Sequence record: OP557969.1
Origin: Escherichia phage ph0011
Direction: 5' to 3' (one strand)
Length of the DNA stretch: 64,000 nt
Below, in pieces: positions 964 through 46,385 of this stretch (position 1 is its first letter; each line of letters opens with the position of its first letter). The position numbers and the translations under genes were made by a program. Under the pieces are notes generated by a model. It searched no databases and was not told the DNA's origin. It saw nothing but the letters and a program-made list of their open reading frames with translations.

Positions 964-1709
964 TAAATAAATCCTCCGTTGCGTAATAGTTCACCTCGCT
1001 TAAAAGCATTTAGGTTGAAAGTTTTAGTCATATAATCGGAAGTGGGTTGTTCTTCAAGCTGTATCATAACCGATATTTTTTGTGGAACCCAAACCTCATC
1101 TTGTGGGTTCATATACCCAGTACTTCTAAGTTGTTCGAAGAATTTCCTACTATCCATATCGGATAAGTTAAATGTACTGTCACTACTATTCAAAGGAACT
1201 TGAATATAAGAAACATCATTTGGATATGTAAAATTATAAGATTTTAAAATAACAGGAATATCATTATATGTATATCTCCCATACCCACTTAAAAGTAAGA
1301 TTGGTGGTGGAGCACCTGCAATTGCAAGTTCTGGGTTATTCGCTGCCGCAGCTTGTCTACCAAAATCCATCAATGAAACTGAACGTATAAAATGGATACA
1401 TGCTAATGTGTACATAGCTTCTGCTGCGGTGTTAGCATAAAACTCACCCTGAATGGTGAAAACAGTATTAGATGTGTTCTTATAGTTGTTATAGTTACTG
1501 TTGGTATGTATCGGTGACTGTGTTTCATACTGAATTGACCTTTGTTCAGTAATTATTGGTGTTACAGTCCATACCAACCCATTAGTTGGACGCAGAAACG
1601 AAAGTAGTGTGGGTTCAGAACTATCTCCGAAATCTCCATATACATAGTTAGCACCTGCGGCTTTAGGTCGTAATCGAATTCTACGATCAATCATTTTTTG
1701 ATTCTCCAT
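963..1709 (-). CDS. Hypothetical protein (248 aa), possibly structural
   Basis: ORF in track, first of three co-oriented minus-strand genes. No motif recognised. Confidence 0.3.
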   Translation of the reverse strand: MENQKMIDRRIRLRPKAAGANYVYGDFGDSSEPTLLSFLRPTNGLVWTVTPIITEQRSIQYETQSPIHTNSNYNNYKNTSNTVFTIQGEFYANTAAEAMYTLACIHFIRSVSLMDFGRQAAAANNPELAIAGAPPPILLLSGYGRYTYNDIPVILKSYNFTYPNDVSYIQVPLNSSDSTFNLSDMDSRKFFEQLRSTGYMNPQDEVWVPQKISVMIQLEEQPTSDYMTKTFNLNAFKRGELLRNGGFI

Positions 1710-1739
1710 AATAAGGGAACATTTGATGTATTTATGGGT

Positions 1740-1767
1740 GGGACAAACTGGTTCTTAGTGCTATAAT
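1740..1767 (+). promoter_or_regulatory. Sigma70-type promoter: -35 GGGACA, 16-nt spacer, extended -10 TGc-TATAAT (1762..1767)
   Basis: Member of a six-copy conserved promoter family in this window; lies 58 nt upstream of the gp55 start. Confidence 0.55.
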
Positions 1768-1824
1768 AACATTGATGGTACAAGGATTGTACCTATTGGA
1801 TTAGAACATGGAGAGTGTAACACA

Positions 1825-2664
1825 ATGACAAGTAGACCAAAGCGTAAAAAGTATCTCAACAATGCAGATTTACTTCGTGAAATACAAAAAAGTAAGATTT
1901 CATACTGCTGGTTATTAGATAAATCATATAGTATGTATGATTATATTGTCTTTCATGAATCTGAAATCACGGCTGAGTTACTTGAAAAAGCTAAAGCAGC
2001 ACGAATTAAAAGACTCAACAATGAAATGCTTGAAAGTATTCGTGCAAAGGAAAACATGAGTGCAAAAAAAGCAAAGGAATATGCAGAAGAGAATAATTTA
2101 GTTATTACTGACGTTCCAATTGATGAAGTTGTTATTCGTGTTATTACTGATGAACACATTCCACCAGATACTAGAGTTAACTTTGAACCATTCAAGCATT
2201 ATATTGTGGATAATGAAGGTATCCTTTATGAAGTTTGTCGTTCTCACTGGAAAGGTGACCTAGAAACAGGTGAATTCTGCACTATTCACGGTAAAATTAC
2301 TAATGAATTGGGTAAAATGTTCATTAAACTTGCAGAGGAAATCTCACACAAATCTAATTATAGAAACTATACTTACTTAGATGAAATGATGGGCGATGCA
2401 AGAATTCAATTAGTTAAAAATGCACTACTCTTTAAAGAGAGTATTCTTTATAAAAAAGATAAACCAGCCGTACAATTAAATCCTTTCTCTTACTATACAT
2501 CGTTTGTTAACAATAGCTTTCGTTCTATTTTGAATAGTGAGAAAAATGTTCGAAATATACGTGATGATTTACTCGAAATGCATGGTTTTACACCATCACA
2601 CACACGTCAAATTGAAATTGAATTGAACATGATTGAAAGGAAAAATGAAGATGGCTCTATTTGA
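1825..2664 (+). CDS. 55: Late-transcription sigma factor gp55-like
   Basis: The N-terminus (KRKKYLNNADLLREIQ) resembles the T4 gp55 N-terminus as recalled from memory; it is followed by gp47 and gp46 as in T4. Confidence 0.65.
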   Translation: MTSRPKRKKYLNNADLLREIQKSKISYCWLLDKSYSMYDYIVFHESEITAELLEKAKAARIKRLNNEMLESIRAKENMSAKKAKEYAEENNLVITDVPIDEVVIRVITDEHIPPDTRVNFEPFKHYIVDNEGILYEVCRSHWKGDLETGEFCTIHGKITNELGKMFIKLAEEISHKSNYRNYTYLDEMMGDARIQLVKNALLFKESILYKKDKPAVQLNPFSYYTSFVNNSFRSILNSEKNVRNIRDDLLEMHGFTPSHTRQIEIELNMIERKNEDGSI

Positions 2665-3682
2665 TAAAGCAATTACATTCACTGATATTCACTTGGGATT
2701 AAAGAATAACAGTAAACAACACAATGAAGATTGTTTAAACTTCATTAAATTTATGATAGATGAAGCAAAAAAGAATAATATCAAAGTTTGTGTTTTTATG
2801 GGAGATTATTTTCATAATAGAAGTAATATCAACATTCAAACACTAAACTATGGTTTACAGATTCTTCAACTACTGAATGACAATTTTAAAAAAGTATATT
2901 TTCTTGTTGGGAATCATGATATGTACCATAAGAACAAACGTGATATCACAAGTATCAATATGGCTCAAGTATATGAAAATATCGAGTTCATCAATGAAAT
3001 CACAACATTTGACGATTGTACATTCATTCCATTTATGATTGAAGATGAATATAAACTATTACCTCAACTAAAAAGTAAGTATGTTTTCGGTCACTTAGAA
3101 TTACCAGGGTACTTACTTAATAAGATGGTAGAAATGCCAGACCATGGGAAAGAAACCGATGGTTCTTTTAGTGGTTGTGAATATGTTTTTAGTGGGCATT
3201 TTCATAAAAGGCAAGCAAAAACAACATCTAAAGGAACTCGTGTTGTTTATACTGGTAATTGCTTCCCACATAATTTTTCCGATACGTGGGATGATGCAAG
3301 AGGTGTAATGATTCTCGAACACGATAAAGAACCAATTTTTAAATCGTGGGATAGTGCACCAAAATATCGAACATTCACACTTTCCGAATTATTGACTGAC
3401 CCCAGTTATTATCTTCAAGATAATACAATTTCTAAAGTTCAAATTGATATATCAATAACAACGGATGAGATTAGTTTTATTCGTGATACTTTTACTAAAC
3501 TATACAACATTAGAGAGTTTAATGTTGTAACAAGTAAACAAAATGTATCAGAATTAATTGAAGATGGTGTCAATTTTGAAAGTACTGAATCAGTTGATGA
3601 GATTGTTTTACAACAAATCATGGAAATTGATTCACCAATGTTTGATAAAAATCTTCTAATCCAAATTTACAGATCATTATAA
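2633..3682 (+). CDS. 47: Recombination endonuclease subunit gp47 (Mre11/SbcD-like phosphoesterase)
   Basis: Calcineurin-like phosphoesterase motifs (FTDIHLG, GDYFH, GNHD); immediately upstream of the Rad50-like gene. Confidence 0.8.
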   Translation: MKGKMKMALFDKAITFTDIHLGLKNNSKQHNEDCLNFIKFMIDEAKKNNIKVCVFMGDYFHNRSNINIQTLNYGLQILQLLNDNFKKVYFLVGNHDMYHKNKRDITSINMAQVYENIEFINEITTFDDCTFIPFMIEDEYKLLPQLKSKYVFGHLELPGYLLNKMVEMPDHGKETDGSFSGCEYVFSGHFHKRQAKTTSKGTRVVYTGNCFPHNFSDTWDDARGVMILEHDKEPIFKSWDSAPKYRTFTLSELLTDPSYYLQDNTISKVQIDISITTDEISFIRDTFTKLYNIREFNVVTSKQNVSELIEDGVNFESTESVDEIVLQQIMEIDSPMFDKNLLIQIYRSL

Positions 3683-7293: not shown

Positions 7294-7503
7294 TTAGTGC
7301 TTCTCGTTTTGTTTTTTAATTTTCTTATTAAAAGACTTAACTAATAAGTCTCTATCTATTAAAGGCATATTAAGAAGTGTTCCATAGTCAATATTATCCA
7401 TATAAACAGAACACTCCATTAGTGCTTGTTTGATTTCTGACTTATTCAGTTCTATCTCCCTTATGACTTCTTGTATTTCTTCAGGAGTTGACTGGAGAAG
7501 CAT
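7294..7503 (-). CDS. Hypothetical protein (69 aa)
   Basis: ORF in track; its start codon overlaps the stop of the upstream gene. Confidence 0.3.
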   Translation of the reverse strand: MLLQSTPEEIQEVIREIELNKSEIKQALMECSVYMDNIDYGTLLNMPLIDRDLLVKSFNKKIKKQNEKH

Positions 7504-8339
7504 TACTCGAAAAAATGACTAGGATCATATTTTAGTCCATCAATTTCCCATTGATGATTACAGTTACTACATTCAACTTCCATAGTATGGGAGACACCAA
7601 TCTCAAGTACTTCATCCATTTTTTCACGAATTAGTTTAAGAACTCCCTTCGATTGTTGACCGAGCCATTCATTAATAAATTCCTTTTCAACTACTTCATC
7701 ACCGTCTGGTGTTATAATTTTTGCAATAACTCCACCAATCATATCAAAATTAAGTTGAGCCATACTTTCAAAAACTTCTGAAAATATTTTTACTTTTTCA
7801 TCATTGTCAATATCAGCAGTTTCAAGAAACTTGGTTTTTTGTTGTTCGTTGAACATGCGTTCTGCAAAAGATGAATATTCTTTCCATGTAAGTGGTTTAA
7901 ATTCCAAACGTAGACCGTTATCCAAATCAACAGAAGGAATTTCACTAAATGATTTCGCAGTTTCAAGTAGATATGATAGATTACGCTCAAAGCGTCCCTC
8001 TTTTTCACATTCAGGACATACTACGTTAATGTCATATGTTTCTTCTTTCGAAGCAACTTTAATTGCAATAAGAAGCATTTCAACGTCATTTACATATAGT
8101 TCATCTGCATCAATTACATTCGGAACACAGTTCTCAATCACACGTGATACTGCATCACCATTTAGTAGCATATCTGGTGTATTCAGTGTCATTTCATCAC
8201 GTGCACTACGTGCACAAACTCCGCACTTGACACCTTTTGGTCCTAGTACTCCATCTTTATAAGGAATAACGCCGTTTGTAACCAACTTAGTACTGATCTC
8301 TTCAATTTTAGTGTACTTAGCAAGTGGATTCATAGCCAT
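7503..8339 (-). CDS. Zinc-ribbon protein (three CxxC pairs); possibly baseplate-hub related by position
   Basis: The track ORF extends to 8444, but the likely start is MAMNPL at 8339. CxxC motifs: CGVCARS, CPECEK, CSNCNH. Divergent from the tape-measure-like gene. Confidence 0.35.
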   Translation of the reverse strand: MAMNPLAKYTKIEEISTKLVTNGVIPYKDGVLGPKGVKCGVCARSARDEMTLNTPDMLLNGDAVSRVIENCVPNVIDADELYVNDVEMLLIAIKVASKEETYDINVVCPECEKEGRFERNLSYLLETAKSFSEIPSVDLDNGLRLEFKPLTWKEYSSFAERMFNEQQKTKFLETADIDNDEKVKIFSEVFESMAQLNFDMIGGVIAKIITPDGDEVVEKEFINEWLGQQSKGVLKLIREKMDEVLEIGVSHTMEVECSNCNHQWEIDGLKYDPSHFFE

Positions 8340-8462
8340 TTTGTTAAATCTCCATGTAATAAATGTGTTTGTAGTATTTATAATACTAAAAACAAACAAT
8401 TTTTTTATATTATATATAGTTTCATAAATATTTCTATAATACATCTATTAAAAGGGAATGTT

Positions 8463-15571: not shown

Positions 15572-16747
15572 ATGTCACAACTACTAAATGAATCCAAATG
15601 GGTAGCAGTAAAAGAGAAACTAGTTGAAGGTCTACAGGGTACTCGTAAGTCTGTAATGGAAACTGTTCTTGATAACCATCGTAAAGTTATGCTAACTGAA
15701 TCTGCAACTTCTGGTGCAACTACTGCTGGTAACATCGCTACTCTAAACAAAGTGATTCTACCAATTATGCGTCGTGTAATGCCAACTGTTATTGCGAACG
15801 AAATTATCGGTGTTCAACCAATGACTGGTCCAGTTGGTCAGATTCACACCCTACGTGTGCAATATGCTGATAATGCACCTGGTGTTATTGCTGGTGAAGA
15901 AATGCTTTCTCCATACAAAATTGCAAAATCCTACTCTGGTGAACTAAATTCTGATAATAGCAACCCACAAGCTGCTCCTACTAGTCAACTAGAAGGTACT
16001 ATGGGTCGTCGCGTAAATATCCGTATCCTACGTGAAACTGTTGAAGCGAAATCACGTCGTCTATCTGCACGTTGGACTGTTGAATCTGCACAAGATGCAC
16101 AATCTCAACATGGTGTTGATGTTGAAGCTGAACTAATGGCAGCAATTGCACAAGAAGTTACTGTAGAAATCGACCAAGAACTACTAAGCCGTCTACGTGC
16201 ACTACCAGGTGCTGCTGCTGTAACTTATGACCAATCTAAAGTTACCGGTGTTGCAACTTTCGTAGGTGATGAACACGCTGCTCTAGCTACCCTAATCAAC
16301 CGTCAAGCTAACGAAGTTGCTCGTCGTACCAAGCGTGGTGCAGCAAACTGGGCCGTTGTTTCCCCAACTGCTCTAACCATTCTACAGTCTGCAACTACTT
16401 CTAGCTTTGCACGTACCACTGAAGGTACTTTTGAAGCACCAACTAACGTTAAGTTTGTAGGTACTCTAAACAGCACCATGCGTATCTTTGTTGATACCTA
16501 TGCAAGTGATTCTGAAGATATCCTAATTGGTTATAAAGGTAATGCTGAAACTGATGCTGGTGTATTCTATTGCCCATACATCCCACTAATGGCATCCGGT
16601 ACTGTTATGGACCCTAACACTGGTGAATTGGTTACAACTTTCCTAACTCGTTATGGTTACGTACAATTGACCGACAGCACTTCCTCTCTTGGTAACGCTG
16701 CTGACTACTATAGCAAAATCGCTATCAAAAACGTTACTTTCATGTAA
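15572..16747 (+). CDS. 23: Major capsid protein gp23-like
   Basis: Conserved blocks IANEIIGVQPMTGPVGQ, VEAKSRRLSARW and IGYKGNAETDAGVFYCPY match the T4 gp23/gp24 family as recalled from memory. Confidence 0.85.
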   Translation: MSQLLNESKWVAVKEKLVEGLQGTRKSVMETVLDNHRKVMLTESATSGATTAGNIATLNKVILPIMRRVMPTVIANEIIGVQPMTGPVGQIHTLRVQYADNAPGVIAGEEMLSPYKIAKSYSGELNSDNSNPQAAPTSQLEGTMGRRVNIRILRETVEAKSRRLSARWTVESAQDAQSQHGVDVEAELMAAIAQEVTVEIDQELLSRLRALPGAAAVTYDQSKVTGVATFVGDEHAALATLINRQANEVARRTKRGAANWAVVSPTALTILQSATTSSFARTTEGTFEAPTNVKFVGTLNSTMRIFVDTYASDSEDILIGYKGNAETDAGVFYCPYIPLMASGTVMDPNTGELVTTFLTRYGYVQLTDSTSSLGNAADYYSKIAIKNVTFM

Positions 16748-25425: not shown

Positions 25426-26157
25426 ATGGATCTACGCAACGTACTACGTGACCTAGTTAACACCACCAGCAGCATCGATTTTTCTTGTATCGCAGTGAGT
25501 AGTGAAGACCGTGGTGAAGGACAACGTGTATATATGGAAGCGTATACAGATGACCGAACTCTTGTTATGCGTGCATATACAAAAGAAGATGTTCCTGAAG
25601 TTCAGGGTCGTTTTGGTCTAGGAAACCTAGGTCTTCTTCAGGGTCTAATGTCCCTTAAAACGTACAGTACTGAAGGAACTACCATTACATCTAATGTTAA
25701 AGATGGTTCAGTTAAAAGTTTAGGATTTAAATCAGAAGATGCAAGTACTACATTTATGGTACAAGCAGAAAAACTTATTCCAGTTCAACCACGTTTCCAT
25801 GAACAACCATATGACGTACAGGTTATTCCTAGTGCTGCTAAAGTTCAAGAACTAAAAAGTTTTTCTGGTGTATTCAAATCATTTAGTTCTCTCGTAACAC
25901 CATACACTGAAGGAGACACTCTATACTTTCATGTTGGTGAGAAAAACAAAAGCAATCACGTTGGGTCATTAGCTTTTTCTAAAACTGAAGGTGAATTGGG
26001 TCTTGGATTTGGATACAATATTGATCGTGTACTTCAAGCACTGTCCCGTGTATCTAATGCTGAATCTGTATCACTCGGAATTACCAAAACTGGTATGCTA
26101 AATGTAACGCTTGATACTGGTATTGCAGTATACAAATTTTACGTAACAGGTTGCTAA
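25426..26157 (+). CDS. 45: Sliding clamp gp45-like
   Basis: 243 aa; local similarity to T4 gp45 as recalled from memory (GLGNLGLLQGLMSL vs LNGFLGILSL); adjacent to the polymerase. Confidence 0.5.
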   Translation: MDLRNVLRDLVNTTSSIDFSCIAVSSEDRGEGQRVYMEAYTDDRTLVMRAYTKEDVPEVQGRFGLGNLGLLQGLMSLKTYSTEGTTITSNVKDGSVKSLGFKSEDASTTFMVQAEKLIPVQPRFHEQPYDVQVIPSAAKVQELKSFSGVFKSFSSLVTPYTEGDTLYFHVGEKNKSNHVGSLAFSKTEGELGLGFGYNIDRVLQALSRVSNAESVSLGITKTGMLNVTLDTGIAVYKFYVTGC

Positions 26158-26432: not shown

Positions 26433-26732
26433 ATGAAAATTAAAATGATTAATGATTATGTACTTGTTCGCCAAATTGAAGCACAGAATAAAAGTTCTGG
26501 TGGTATTATTCTTGGTAATGTTGAACCACCTTGCATTGGTATGGTAATTTCAGTTGGGCCTGGTAAAATCTTACCTAATGGACAATTAGCAGAGCACAAT
26601 ATTAAAGAAGGTGATATGGTTGTATTTGGACGCTCTTCATTGAACACCCCACTCACTGAAGATCTTGGTGGTGGTGAAGATACATATTATGTAATGAAAA
26701 TTGAAGAGATTTTTGGTAAGAAAAATGGCTAA
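26433..26732 (+). CDS. GroES-like co-chaperonin (functional analog of T4 gp31)
   Basis: MKIKMINDYVLVRQIEAQNKSSGGIILG...VISVGPG...EGDMVVF aligns with the canonical GroES pattern; the track ORF starts earlier at 26370. Confidence 0.7.
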   Translation: MKIKMINDYVLVRQIEAQNKSSGGIILGNVEPPCIGMVISVGPGKILPNGQLAEHNIKEGDMVVFGRSSLNTPLTEDLGGGEDTYYVMKIEEIFGKKNG

Positions 26733-27450
26733 AAAGAAATTCATACCATTTTGGCTTGTCCCTGCACATTGGGGACTTTCTGGAAAAGCAAAAGAGATTG
26801 CCAAAGCATACTACTACAATGATGATTATGAAGCTGATATGAAAGTTGCAGAATTGACATATTTAACTCCATATGAAGTAGAAGTAGCACATTTAGATAT
26901 TAAAAAGAAATATAATGTAATTGGAGAACTTGAATATCTAATCGCAGTACTTGATGTGGACCTTAAATATTCTAAAATTACACGTGAACAGTATGACGTT
27001 AAAGTTCTTGATGCAAAATTAAGTACTGGAACTATTACTGAAAAAGAATATGACATGGAAATTATCGAGTTAATGCCAGACGGTGATGAAAAAAGGCTGA
27101 AGGCAATTGAATATGCATATCGATATGATGAAATCACACAAAGTGAATATTCTAAGGAAATATACACACTTCGTAAAGAGCCGTGGATTGATTTAGACGT
27201 GGTTCTTGACCCTGATACGAATGAAGTTGAGTTTGTGTTTGATTATAATGAGTATTTCTGGAAAAAGTTGAAGGCTGAAGGCCATCCAGGTAATGACGAA
27301 GAAGAGATTATTGATAATTTTGTTAGAGACTTAGGTCGTAAACTTGCCACGGATGATTTCAGTGATGATTATGACACAAAGTTGGTGAGTGCGAACGAAG
27401 GATTAGACAAGCTACCTGGTTTGCCTGAAGGTTTTCGTTCATATAGATGA
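26725..27450 (+). CDS. Hypothetical protein with internal repeats
   Basis: Likely start MAKKKF at 26725 (track ORF starts at 26701); repeated EYD/EYS-containing segments. Confidence 0.3.
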   Translation: MAKKKFIPFWLVPAHWGLSGKAKEIAKAYYYNDDYEADMKVAELTYLTPYEVEVAHLDIKKKYNVIGELEYLIAVLDVDLKYSKITREQYDVKVLDAKLSTGTITEKEYDMEIIELMPDGDEKRLKAIEYAYRYDEITQSEYSKEIYTLRKEPWIDLDVVLDPDTNEVEFVFDYNEYFWKKLKAEGHPGNDEEEIIDNFVRDLGRKLATDDFSDDYDTKLVSANEGLDKLPGLPEGFRSYR

Positions 27451-27455
27451 AATAT

Positions 27456-27487
27456 AAAAAGGAGAGCATATGCTCTCCTTTTCTTTT
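27456..27487. terminator. Bidirectional rho-independent terminator between convergent genes
   Basis: Perfect 18-nt palindrome GGAGAGCATATGCTCTCC flanked by an A-tract and a T-tract. Confidence 0.65.
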
Positions 27488-27493
27488 GATATA

Positions 27494-28183
27494 TTAAACC
27501 AATGCTGGGAGGTATTTGAATAGTTTAATACCGAAATCACCTGCTGCATCAGCGGCCTGTGAACGAAGATACACTTCAGTGACACCATCTTTTGCCAATA
27601 GCGGAACACCAGTTAGGTCATCGATTAGTAGGCGACCTTCTTCATATTCAGTACTTGGAACACCTTGTGGTGATTTGAGATCTTTATTAAAGACACTAGC
27701 ACGTTCAACAAGGAATGTGATAACAGAAGCATCATCAATGCTAACGCTACCAGCACTCATAACACCATCAGGTGCGTTGGAGAAACCAGTAACCGGAAAC
27801 GCTTCAGCACCACTTCCTGCAATGTTGGATGTGGCAATAACAACTGCACGCTGTTGCACAACGTCTACGATGCGTTTGACGTTGGTTTGTGCTGCATAGG
27901 ATGCATTGTAATCTGATTCTAGTGATTCTAGAACGAAAGCAGAACCATCAACACGCTTGATACCTTTATCATTTAGGTATGCTAGAATTTCTTCTGGGAT
28001 ATCAGTGTTTAGAAAACGTTGTAAACCTACATAAGAGGAAACTGCTCCTGTTACAAGAACGTTCACGTCACCAAGTTTACTAATAGCAATAGATGCTAGG
28101 GCGTTAGTACCACAAAAGTAACCTAGAATACGCTCAAATGAATACCCATTGATACGTTCAAAAGAAGTATTAGTATTTGACAT
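27494..28183 (-). CDS. Putative late/structural protein, paralog B
   Basis: Shares blocks with 28199..28798 (QQRAVVIATS vs QQRAVLVTTS; ERASVFNK vs ERQDVFNK). Confidence 0.4.
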   Translation of the reverse strand: MSNTNTSFERINGYSFERILGYFCGTNALASIAISKLGDVNVLVTGAVSSYVGLQRFLNTDIPEEILAYLNDKGIKRVDGSAFVLESLESDYNASYAAQTNVKRIVDVVQQRAVVIATSNIAGSGAEAFPVTGFSNAPDGVMSAGSVSIDDASVITFLVERASVFNKDLKSPQGVPSTEYEEGRLLIDDLTGVPLLAKDGVTEVYLRSQAADAAGDFGIKLFKYLPALV

Positions 28184-28198
28184 AATATTACCTCTCTA

Positions 28199-28798
28199 TT
28201 ATAGTTGAACTGGAAGAGCAGCACGTACTTTAATAGCTACAGCAGTAGATGCACCTGCATCACCAACACCATCAGTTCCTTGACTTACGAAAGTTTTAGT
28301 ACGAAAAACTTTAGCTTGTGCAATAGATTTAGCTAGGTCAACAGTTGGATCAACTGGAGCAGGACATGCAGAACCTGGACGAACTTCTTGTTTATTAAAT
28401 ACGTCTTGACGTTCACAGATGAAAGTCAATGCAACAGAGTTAGCACCACCTTTAACATCAGTACCGCTAGTACCAAATGCAACTACGTTTGGGTTAGCAT
28501 TTTTAAAATCTTCAGGAATAACAACTTCTGCATCAAGAGCAAGTAGTGAAGTCGTTACAAGAACAGCACGTTGCTGTAGTAGTTGAGTAACCATGAATAG
28601 GTTATATTGTGCATTGCTTAGTGCAGTTTGATATGCATCAGCTTGAGCATCAGAACCATCGGACACAACTTTAGTAGTACCGATTTCAACATCGGCTGGT
28701 AGATCGATTACGATGGTTACAAAACCGTTGTTACCACCCCACCATTCGCGTGCAACACCAGACATACCATAGTTACGGTTAAAAGAATTAAGACTCAT
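28199..28798 (-). CDS. Putative late/structural protein, paralog A
   Basis: Paralog of 27494..28183; the minus strand upstream of its start carries GATAAATA late-promoter-like motifs. Confidence 0.4.
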   Translation of the reverse strand: MSLNSFNRNYGMSGVAREWWGGNNGFVTIVIDLPADVEIGTTKVVSDGSDAQADAYQTALSNAQYNLFMVTQLLQQRAVLVTTSLLALDAEVVIPEDFKNANPNVVAFGTSGTDVKGGANSVALTFICERQDVFNKQEVRPGSACPAPVDPTVDLAKSIAQAKVFRTKTFVSQGTDGVGDAGASTAVAIKVRAALPVQL

Positions 28799-28921
28799 GA
28801 AAATCTCCTTGTCAAATTTTGTGCAGGAACATCCTGCTTAAAGTTATTTATCAAAAAATATCATCAGCATTTAAATTTACTGAAATAATTAATGAATTTC
28901 TATGATATTATTTATCAAAAT

Positions 28922-28959: not shown

Positions 28960-35278
<6,319 letters not shown>

Positions 35279-44394: not shown

Positions 44395-45010
44395 ACATTA
44401 CAGAAAAGCCAGAACTGATATTGATATTGACTTCAAGGATAGTAAAAGCGTCATCGCTAAACTTCCATGCGTGCGAAGTACTGAGAAAATTACTGAGGAT
44501 GGTTTAATCCCACACAATAGTGGTGTTCATTTTGATAATATACCAATTGACCCAATCACTGGATTGGCGAGTATACAATATAAAGAAGCTGAAAGGTTAG
44601 GGTATCAAAAAGTTGATATTCTTTCACAGTCAGCTTACATGTATGTTCGCGATAGAGAGCATTTAAAAGAACTAATGAATCAGGAACCGAATTGGGATCT
44701 TTTACTAGAACCCGAAATTGTAGAGCATCTTTCGCAAATTAAAAAACACGTAACTTTATTAAATGTATGGAAGCCTAAATCAATTGACGAACTTGCAATG
44801 TTTATTGCTATGATTCGACCAGGAAAAAGGCAGTGCCAAAGTATGAACACATGGGACGAAGTAAAAGCCACCATATGGGATTATAGTACTATTGGCACTG
44901 ACCAATCAGGAAATAAATTGCGATATTTCAAAAAGCCACATGCTTATGCATATAGCTTAATGATTGTAGTCCAACTAAATGCTTTAGTTGAACACCTTAC
45001 TTCTTCTTAA
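44372..45010 (+). CDS. Hypothetical protein
   Basis: ORF in track. Confidence 0.3.
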   Translation: MQDSTDSKHYRKARTDIDIDFKDSKSVIAKLPCVRSTEKITEDGLIPHNSGVHFDNIPIDPITGLASIQYKEAERLGYQKVDILSQSAYMYVRDREHLKELMNQEPNWDLLLEPEIVEHLSQIKKHVTLLNVWKPKSIDELAMFIAMIRPGKRQCQSMNTWDEVKATIWDYSTIGTDQSGNKLRYFKKPHAYAYSLMIVVQLNALVEHLTSS

Positions 45011-45350
45011 GTGCCACATTACGACGCTTGATGCGTTTCTGTGGTAAATTGCTTAAAGAAACTTCTGGACCACATACGAAATTCACCGATGGTGTATCAA
45101 ATCTATGTGTATACGGTTCAAATTTCTCCATCTCTTCTTGAAAGAATAGACACACTGGAATGGTTCTATTGCTTTGCCACCACCAATCGTGTGCTATACC
45201 TAACAATTCGTCTTGCATTGACTCATTCATGTCATCGAAACAGTACATAGTAGTATACTGTTTACTTTTGATTTTGATGATACCAATGAACGTTTTACCA
45301 TCATACTGGATTACAGTAATAAATGGTGGAATAGTGTTATATTGATTCAT
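44997..45350 (-). CDS. Hypothetical protein on the opposite strand
   Basis: Only minus-strand ORF in this block; Trp-rich segment HDWWWQ. Confidence 0.3.
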   Translation of the reverse strand: MNQYNTIPPFITVIQYDGKTFIGIIKIKSKQYTTMYCFDDMNESMQDELLGIAHDWWWQSNRTIPVCLFFQEEMEKFEPYTHRFDTPSVNFVCGPEVSLSNLPQKRIKRRNVALKKK

Positions 45351-45407
45351 ATTAGTTCCATAAATATTAGTATAAATTTATACCTATTATTTATGGAAGG
45401 AAAAACT

Positions 45408-46385
45408 ATGGCTCATCACGGCGTGTTTATGTACCCTTATAATCAGGAAGTATCATTGGGCAATTTTAATATGCCATATAGCAATGAAAAACTAACTATA
45501 TATAAAGGGGCAAATAATAATTTATCTTTTACTGTTCACAACGCTGATGGAAAGTATACTTTATTGAAAGAAAATGAATATCTTACATTTATGATTTTTG
45601 ATGTACGAAATAATACTAAACTATTTGATGTTGTTTTGGAAAAACAAGAACCAAGTTGGCTATCCGAAAGCGGTCAGGCCCGACAAACATTGGGAAATAA
45701 AAAGAAAGTATATTATGGATGTATTGTTCCAGCAGGTGTTATCCAAGATACCAGTCCTGGTTCCAAATATAGATGGAGTATCACTAAAGTAACAATGGAC
45801 GGTTCACTTGTAGAACCAACGCAATATCTATATACAGGTATGAACTATGAAGCATCAGCAGAGTTAATTATTTCAGACCAAGCTGTACCTGTATTTGTCC
45901 CTAGTACTGAAATATCTGTCAACCAAAATTCTGCATGGACGACTATTAAGCGTTTATATCATGAGCCTATTGGTAATGGTATGATTGGGGAATATGATAT
46001 TCTTGCATCAACACCCCTCCCTGCACAAATGCAGTTTGGATTGGTTGATGGATTGAGTAGTATAGCAATCTATTTTGATAAATTTATTGGTAGGATACAG
46101 CTTCAAGGGTGTTTGTGTAATGACGTACCAAATGATAATGAAAACTATAAATGGTTTATTATTAAATTAGATGGAAAGGATTATATTGAAAATGGGGTGG
46201 ATGTGGAAGGATTTCCAGAAGAACTCGATGGAATTGAAGCATTTAATTTTAAAGGAAATTATATGTGGTTAAGAATTGTAGTAGCTATTCATCCTAAAAC
46301 TGTTCCAGTACCATATGACTATGCTGCTGTGAGAAAAGTGTATGACCCTTTCTTAACTGTACCTAAAATTTTGATTCGCAGGTGA
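45408..46385 (+). CDS. Hypothetical protein (possibly structural)
   Basis: Likely start MAHHGVF at 45408 (track ORF starts at 45342); late-promoter-like CATAAATA upstream. Confidence 0.3.
   Translation: MAHHGVFMYPYNQEVSLGNFNMPYSNEKLTIYKGANNNLSFTVHNADGKYTLLKENEYLTFMIFDVRNNTKLFDVVLEKQEPSWLSESGQARQTLGNKKKVYYGCIVPAGVIQDTSPGSKYRWSITKVTMDGSLVEPTQYLYTGMNYEASAELIISDQAVPVFVPSTEISVNQNSAWTTIKRLYHEPIGNGMIGEYDILASTPLPAQMQFGLVDGLSSIAIYFDKFIGRIQLQGCLCNDVPNDNENYKWFIIKLDGKDYIENGVDVEGFPEELDGIEAFNFKGNYMWLRIVVAIHPKTVPVPYDYAAVRKVYDPFLTVPKILIRR

Follow-up and report, generated by a model that had tools for sequence, protein, structure and literature searches.

An inverted, conserved gene cassette of RaK2-like jumbo phages encoding two paralogs of abundant virion proteins

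The gene pair in described phages and in the window

RaK2-like phages (121Q, PBECO4, phAPEC6, RaK2, K64-1, and CBB), which are candidates for phage therapy, belong to the largest coliphages and Klebsiella phages. Two of their virion proteins were described in 2013 for phage RaK2, where ORF106w (24.6 kDa) and ORF107w (21.1 kDa) were introduced as "two distantly related proteins," detected in virions by mass spectrometry, and cited as abundant on SDS-PAGE (PMC3622015). Hence, both the pair and its paralogy are already published. The gel mobility of these two proteins equals their predicted mass, so there is no detectable proteolytic processing; the loss of a short targeting peptide (~1 kDa) is possibly compatible with this mobility. 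With sequence coverage taken as a crude proxy for copy number, CBB_270 reached 91.3%—the top value of that study—and CBB_271 56.4%, next to 68% for the major capsid protein (MCP) (PMC5259590), while phAPEC6 gp210 and gp211 reached 69.8% and 69.9%, where the MCP had 74.9% and the sheath protein 68% (PMC7247149).

The locus described here lies in a 64,000-nucleotide stretch of Escherichia phage ph0011 (record OP557969.1), which we refer to as the window. The 2.2 kb around the gene pair are 94.5% identical to Escherichia phage UE-S1 and ~89% identical to PBECO4, 121Q-like phages, phAPEC6, and G17. Judged by its sequence, the window is that of an Asteriusvirus-like jumbo coliphage, whose relatives are the ~350-kb RaK2-like jumbo myoviruses of the genus Asteriusvirus. 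Two open reading frames of 229 and 199 aa had been proposed on its minus strand, and both are found exactly at the positions and on the strand given:

28199–28798, minus strand: short paralog, first gene of the operon; 199 aa, 20.9 kDa, pI 4.78; phrog_9326
27494–28183, minus strand: long paralog, second gene of the operon; 229 aa, 24.4 kDa, pI 4.55; phrog_9326

Direct orthologs of the pair are ORF106w/107w of RaK2, CBB_270/271, GAP32_264/265, gp211/gp210 of phAPEC6, and UES1_565/566 of UE-S1. Hereby, ORF107w, CBB_271, and gp210 correspond to the short and ORF106w, CBB_270, and gp211 to the long paralog. The identity of the short protein to its counterparts falls from 99.5% (UE-S1) over 95% (PBECO4/121Q) and 67% (RaK2) to ~52% (CBB/GAP32). 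The evidence for presence in the virion is that of the orthologs in RaK2, CBB, and phAPEC6, the present isolate being known from its sequence. The initial annotation of the window had pointed to a duplicated virion or late-function gene pair, and this reading is supported by three independent virion proteomes, in which the orthologs were verified by mass spectrometry at a coverage similar to or higher than that of the MCP.

The two proteins are clearly paralogous, as had been proposed. BLASTP aligns them with E = 1e-8 and 34% identity over 80 aa, a stretch that contains VQQRAVVIATS/LQQRAVLVTTS and ERASVFNK/ERQDVFNK, and a full-length alignment extends from an N-terminal M..F.R..G motif through a C-terminal IK.F..LP motif. 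Both match phrog_9326—the RaK2-like "virion structural protein" family—along their entire sequence: the 229-aa protein with residues 4–229 on profile positions 2–195 of 195 (E 2.3e-83) and the 199-aa protein with residues 1–199 on positions 1–195 (E 3.5e-86). The shared blocks noted before hold for QQRAV..(A/T)TS and ER..VFNK; of a third block, AxxNxxRI, the A and the N are invariant in the family, whereas the RI is not. The long paralog consists of the core common to both and a helical insertion of ~30 aa, and both proteins are acidic and slightly hydrophobic.

Searches beyond the family returned little. Neither protein matched Pfam, even at E up to 1, and the label "hemagglutinin repeat" on phAPEC6 gp211 is hence unsupported. 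Searching the PDB with each sequence and with a profile of 42 sequences gave only noise (E at least 0.2). The family comprises 38 clusters by a word-indexed search and 39 by an exhaustive HMMER profile search; with only 39 clusters among 1.84 billion representative proteins, there are no annotated distant relatives.

The family has two subfamilies, one short (199-like) and one long (229-like). Thirteen phage genomes and four of the five metagenomic contigs show them in tandem, short before long; on the fifth contig, of 1.5 kb, a 213-aa gene lies upstream. As nearly every genome or contig examined carries at least one short and at least one long member in the same order, the duplication is older than the RaK2-like supergroup as a whole, and neither copy has been lost. 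In the marine jumbo Vibrio phage 2.275.O, three family members (227, 184, and 234 aa) stand in tandem at 1135–3206, and each of the first two has its own ATAAATA core and hairpin.

The pair forms an inverted island, whose position between an RNase H/terminase block and a GroES/249-aa block is conserved. The closest other minus-strand genes are found at 7503–8444 (~20 kb away) and 44997–45350 (~17 kb away), which bears out the earlier observation that the pair runs opposite to all its neighbors. Its placement inside the replication module holds in part: genes for DNA polymerase, a clamp-like protein, and RNase H are nearby, but terminase is intermixed with these, and the portal, protease, and MCP genes are 11–17 kb from the pair, which itself is located between the MCP and terminase genes. 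On the other side of the terminator, a convergent gene faces the pair:

26701–27450, plus strand: 249-aa acidic protein, pI 4.8, very hydrophilic; phrog_13349, "virion structural protein"

In almost every phage genome and longer contig that we examined, this gene separates the pair from the phage GroES gene. The 249-aa protein is absent from the phAPEC6 virion protein list, and its "structural" label may hence not hold everywhere.

Two further neighbors deserve mention in their own right. The plus-strand gene at 25426–26157 encodes a 243-aa protein without a Pfam match, whose ortholog in phage fEgEco12 is labeled a sliding clamp; the phAPEC6 ortholog, gp215c, is present in purified virions with 26% coverage, which one would not expect of a clamp for replication or late transcription. 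The large terminase gene (31193–33854, plus strand) carries an intein in its Walker-A loop, with a junction near 31454: ARQMGK precedes the intein, which ends with LIPTHN and is followed by TTVAAAF. This intein is missing from PBECO4, while terminase genes of intein-containing length (~2.66 kb) are found in UE-S1, RaK2, and JNE01, with the junction aligned for UE-S1 only. In the window, the N-extein lies in a different reading frame than the intein and C-extein because of one extra C relative to UE-S1 (CAAATG[C]GGAAAA)—an error of sequencing, or else a true frameshift in this essential gene.

Putative promoters, leader, and terminator of the cassette

The regulatory elements around the pair were compared with the orthologous regions of 12 further phages, covering Asteriusvirus, Alcyoneusvirus (RaK2), Mimasvirus (CBB, GAP32), and Eneladusvirus (Serratia BF, Yersinia Yen9-04) as well as Salmonella phage Munch, Erwinia phage Kaldavass, and a Vibrio jumbo phage. 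Across these 13 phages, the same order is kept—promoter core(s), 5′ hairpin, short gene, long gene, bidirectional terminator. In the window, the elements are:

28909–28916, minus strand: distal late-promoter-like core GATAAATA, 117 nt upstream of the short-gene ATG
28845–28852, minus strand: proximal late-promoter-like core GATAAATA, 53 nt upstream of the short-gene ATG
28823–28837, minus strand: 5′-UTR hairpin GCAGGAUGUUCCUGC, beginning ~7 nt after the proximal core
28805–28810, minus strand: Shine–Dalgarno AAGGAG of the short paralog, with AAGGAGAUUUU(U/C)AUG conserved
28184–28198, minus strand: intercistronic spacer of 15 nt with the Shine–Dalgarno TAGAGAGGTAATATT (contains GAGAGG)
27457–27482, both strands: perfect 26-nt palindrome AAAAGGAGAGCATATGCTCTCCTTTT, a bidirectional intrinsic terminator common to the pair and the convergent 249-aa gene
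1825–2664, plus strand, outside the locus: gp55-like late sigma factor; phrog_12791 (E 5e-154) and phrog_234, "late sigma transcription factor" (E 3e-17)

The GATAAATA cores agree at 7 of 8 positions with the T4-type late promoter core TATAAATA. As an 8-mer, GATAAATA is not enriched over the whole window (8 found vs. 7.1 expected), and hence the case for a motif had to draw on conservation and orientation. In the 12 enterobacterial phages, the proximal core is positioned at −53 to −60 and the distal core, with divergent flanks, at −116 to −128; in the Vibrio phage, two genes are each preceded by one core, at −63. These ATAAATA cores are conserved across ~5 genera, also in places where the intergenic DNA around them can no longer be aligned. 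Of the 26 copies of ATAAATA in the window, 12 are intergenic, although intergenic DNA makes up only 6.5% of the sequence, and all 12 are directed at the downstream gene, including the MCP gene at 15572. Matches to sigma-70-like promoters occur in the window at chance level (13 found vs. 11.3 expected). Buttimer et al. (PMC5259590) likewise put ATAAATA forward as the late promoter in CBB and GAP32. The late-type motifs that the initial annotation had placed upstream of the pair are thus conserved in position, co-oriented, and match a motif proposed for relatives, and a fitting sigma factor gene is found in the same window.

This gp55-like protein, of 279 aa, is ~100 residues longer than T4 gp55, and its similarity to the general late-sigma family is limited to residues 125–262. 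From its family matches, it is expected to be the trans-acting factor that reads the ATAAATA promoters. A literature search returned no transcriptome for an Asteriusvirus or RaK2, and the term "late" hence rests on motifs; RNA-seq exists for PA5oct, but the tblastn matches include no Pseudomonas phage. Nevertheless, we infer late expression of the pair with good support from the conserved cores, their co-orientation, the sigma factor gene, the published CBB/GAP32 motif, and the strong codon bias of the 199-aa gene (GC3 0.16).

The leader hairpin shows a clear signature of covariation: in an alignment of 11 sequences, 3 of its 5 pairs carry compensatory double changes and none is broken. Its stem GCAGG/CCTGC changes to GUAAG/CUUAC in RaK2 and to GCCAG/CUGGC in the Vibrio phage. 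It is probably situated at or near the mRNA 5′ end, where it would stabilize a highly expressed late mRNA. The spacer between the two genes is 13–19 nt long in the 13 phages and always contains GGAG/GAGG; such a short spacer with a Shine–Dalgarno sequence implies cotranscription and coupled translation.

At the end of the pair, AAAAGGAGAGCATATGCTCTCCTTTT is scored as a terminator on both strands and folds with −18.7 kcal/mol (z = −5.2), in agreement with the perfect-palindrome bidirectional terminator proposed initially. At the equivalent site in 13 phages—likewise between convergent genes—an A-run, a GC-rich stem, and a T-run are found, whereby the stem varies (GGAGAGC, GGAGAAC, GGACGC, GTCCGC) and the structure is kept. 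Another terminator-like site, within the 229-aa gene (28060–28044), was dismissed as a weak chance match.

Elsewhere in the window, at 45360–45394, two ATAAATA cores on opposite strands face each other within 35 nt around the palindromic TATAAATTTATA. They sit at the divergent junction of the genes 44997–45350 (minus strand) and 45342–46385 (plus strand) and may, by their arrangement, be a pair of back-to-back late promoters.

Predicted folds and role in the particle

Structures of both proteins were predicted by AlphaFold2 from the family alignment, with pLDDT 78.7 and pTM 0.74 for the 199-aa protein, whose conserved N-terminal 21 residues are disordered, and with pLDDT 87.1 and pTM 0.82 for the 229-aa protein. 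Both models are alpha/beta sandwiches with a generic ferredoxin-like core and one long helix, to which the long paralog adds two short helices. Neither model matched any of the solved virion proteins in a structural comparison, and Foldseek against BFVD returned only family members and uncharacterized jumbo-phage proteins. A check for tail tube-like or capsid-decoration folds had been suggested at the outset; the models are not tube-like and resemble no solved decoration protein.

What the pair does in the particle can be approached from the architecture of related capsids. Cryo-EM maps of 121Q and phAPEC6 at ~10 Å show a T=28 shell with an HK97-sized MCP, a fiber anchor at the hexon center, a penton that is not MCP, and an inner body, besides an unassigned protein layer on the surface (phAPEC6: PMC7247149). 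Particles of 121Q are known to be sensitive to CsCl. The phAPEC6 authors could not assign the surface layer from their mass spectrometry and noted that it might be an MCP domain (PMC7247149). Our literature search found no RaK2-like capsid or tail solved at high resolution in which either protein is assigned; the phiKp24 structure comes from an unrelated lineage.

Several circumstantial observations favor a role in the capsid lattice: the high coverage of the orthologs, as would be expected of a lattice component with hundreds to over a thousand copies; the lack of detectable processing in RaK2, which suits an addition from the outside; the location of the genes between MCP and terminase; the short MCP; and the occupation of the tail-tube role by other genes. 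In the proposed course of events, the phage gp55-like sigma factor would read the two tandem T4-type cores, (G)ATAAATA, and a bicistronic mRNA would start near the stabilizing hairpin, carry the short and then the long paralog, and end at the bidirectional terminator. Its products—acidic, built on a ferredoxin-like alpha/beta core, and with a flexible N-terminal arm that is conserved—would enter the virion in high copy and, together and in roughly equal amounts, serve the capsid lattice as accessory proteins of the decoration or cement kind. The pair might then account for the unassigned second protein layer that bridges neighboring capsomers on the T=28 capsids of phAPEC6 and 121Q; this layer would reinforce the short, HK97-sized MCP, which has only 391 aa. 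Taken as a whole, the statement that the locus is a self-contained late operon whose two paralogs jointly serve as a capsid-lattice accessory pair is, in our view, about evenly poised between right and wrong. Tentatively, and with somewhat less than even confidence, it can be sharpened: the paralogs might be a hetero-oligomeric cement, with a fold new to virion proteins, that builds the hexagonal ridge network bridging the local two-fold axes of the T=28 capsids. If the cement reading is true, it would explain how a short, HK97-sized capsid protein of the gp23 type holds a 350-kb genome, and the inverted, insulated dual-promoter late cassette would deliver the subunits in matched, near-MCP amounts. 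For the decoration role, further small phAPEC6 proteins with high coverage compete, namely gp347, gp306c, gp315c, and gp037c.

The abundance of the pair would also be accounted for if it were placed inside the head. Bubblegrams of 121Q and phAPEC6 heads reveal a radiation-sensitive inner body of ~91 × 18 nm, which would need hundreds of copies of a ~22-kDa protein, and a pair that builds or lines this body might organize the 350-kb genome for packaging and ejection. The inner-body proteins of phiKZ also form paralogous sets. However, internal proteins of the T4 and phiKZ type are normally trimmed by the prohead protease; this phage encodes such a protease, yet the RaK2 orthologs run at their predicted mass. 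A pI of 4.5–4.8 combined with slight hydrophobicity does not suggest DNA binding either, and the phAPEC6 authors found no sequence similarity between the phiKZ inner-body proteins and any phAPEC6 protein (PMC7247149). We therefore consider an internal role unlikely. Slightly more doubtful still is an assignment to another external part of the virion—an anchor or subunit of the hair-like fibers on head and sheath, a decoration ring of sheath or neck, or the non-MCP dome at the vertices. Such parts do await genes, as phAPEC6, 121Q, and CBB bear hairs, sheath decorations, a hexon-center fiber anchor, and a globular penton without gene assignment, and the conserved N-terminal arm hints at attachment to a partner. 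Against this, RaK2 and GAP32, for which hairs are not reported, equally carry the pair; the copy numbers of penton or ring (12–60) are a poor fit to an MCP-like coverage; and the paralogs are without fibrous or repeat features, the "hemagglutinin repeat" label of gp211 having no backing in Pfam.

An earlier proposal places one paralog in the inner tube of the contractile tail. Simoliunas et al. arrived at this idea for RaK2 from the size of 21–25 kDa, the abundance, and the predicted beta content (PMC3622015). In phAPEC6, however, three other proteins—gp275c, gp274c, and gp273c—match the "tail tube protein" families phrog_4542/phrog_13438, with weak links to phrog_45; their genes lie just downstream of the sheath gene gp277c, with only the small ORF gp276c in between, and all three proteins were detected in phAPEC6 virions (PMC7247149). 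Neither paralog matches any of these three tube families, neither model displays the beta-sandwich fold of tube or Hcp-type proteins, and the phAPEC6 pair gp210/211 is located ~80 kb from the sheath gene. With tube genes found beside the sheath gene, and the pair bearing neither tube family nor tube fold at such a distance, a tail-tube role is very unlikely.

A role for the pair in the capsid lattice thus remains the reading that we prefer. The pair ranks with the best-covered virion proteins of three proteomes; setting the tube aside narrows the search for its place. Given the deep conservation of the late cassette, it would be the first-choice candidate once a high-resolution capsid map is built. 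For annotation, both genes can be labeled "virion structural protein (phrog_9326), late."

Comparison with late genes and head proteins of other phages

With respect to its orthologs, the locus is alike in tandem order, inverted orientation, promoters, and terminator, and nothing of substance is different. What is new here is the in-silico rejection of the tail-tube role, the description of a conserved late cassette, and a fold that matches no solved virion protein.

The late genes of T4 are the closest regulatory parallel. Their promoters, with the core TATAAATA read by gp55, likewise consist of a single −10-like AT-rich core without a −35 element and precede structural genes, and the present phage likewise encodes a gp55-like sigma factor. 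In contrast to T4, the core here is ATAAATA, usually after G or another base than T, so that TATAAATA occurs in only 7 of the 26 copies. Also, two tandem cores and a conserved 5′ hairpin serve this one operon, by which it differs from the T4 late genes.

If the pair belongs to the head, abundant paralogous head components in a jumbo phage with an inner body would be a likeness to phiKZ, whose inner-body proteins differ from the pair in that the RaK2 orthologs show no evident proteolytic maturation. Among the decoration and cement proteins, T4 Soc, lambda gpD, Dec of phage L, pb10 of T5, and gp1 of GP4 are small, abundant additions to an HK97 lattice, to which the pair would be comparable by inference; the lack of detectable proteolytic processing in the RaK2 orthologs can be counted as a further likeness. 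No homology or common fold with characterized decoration proteins (Soc, gpD, Hoc, Dec, pb10, and others) was found. The pair stands apart from them by its ferredoxin-like alpha/beta sandwich and by its composition of two diverged paralogs that are always kept together.
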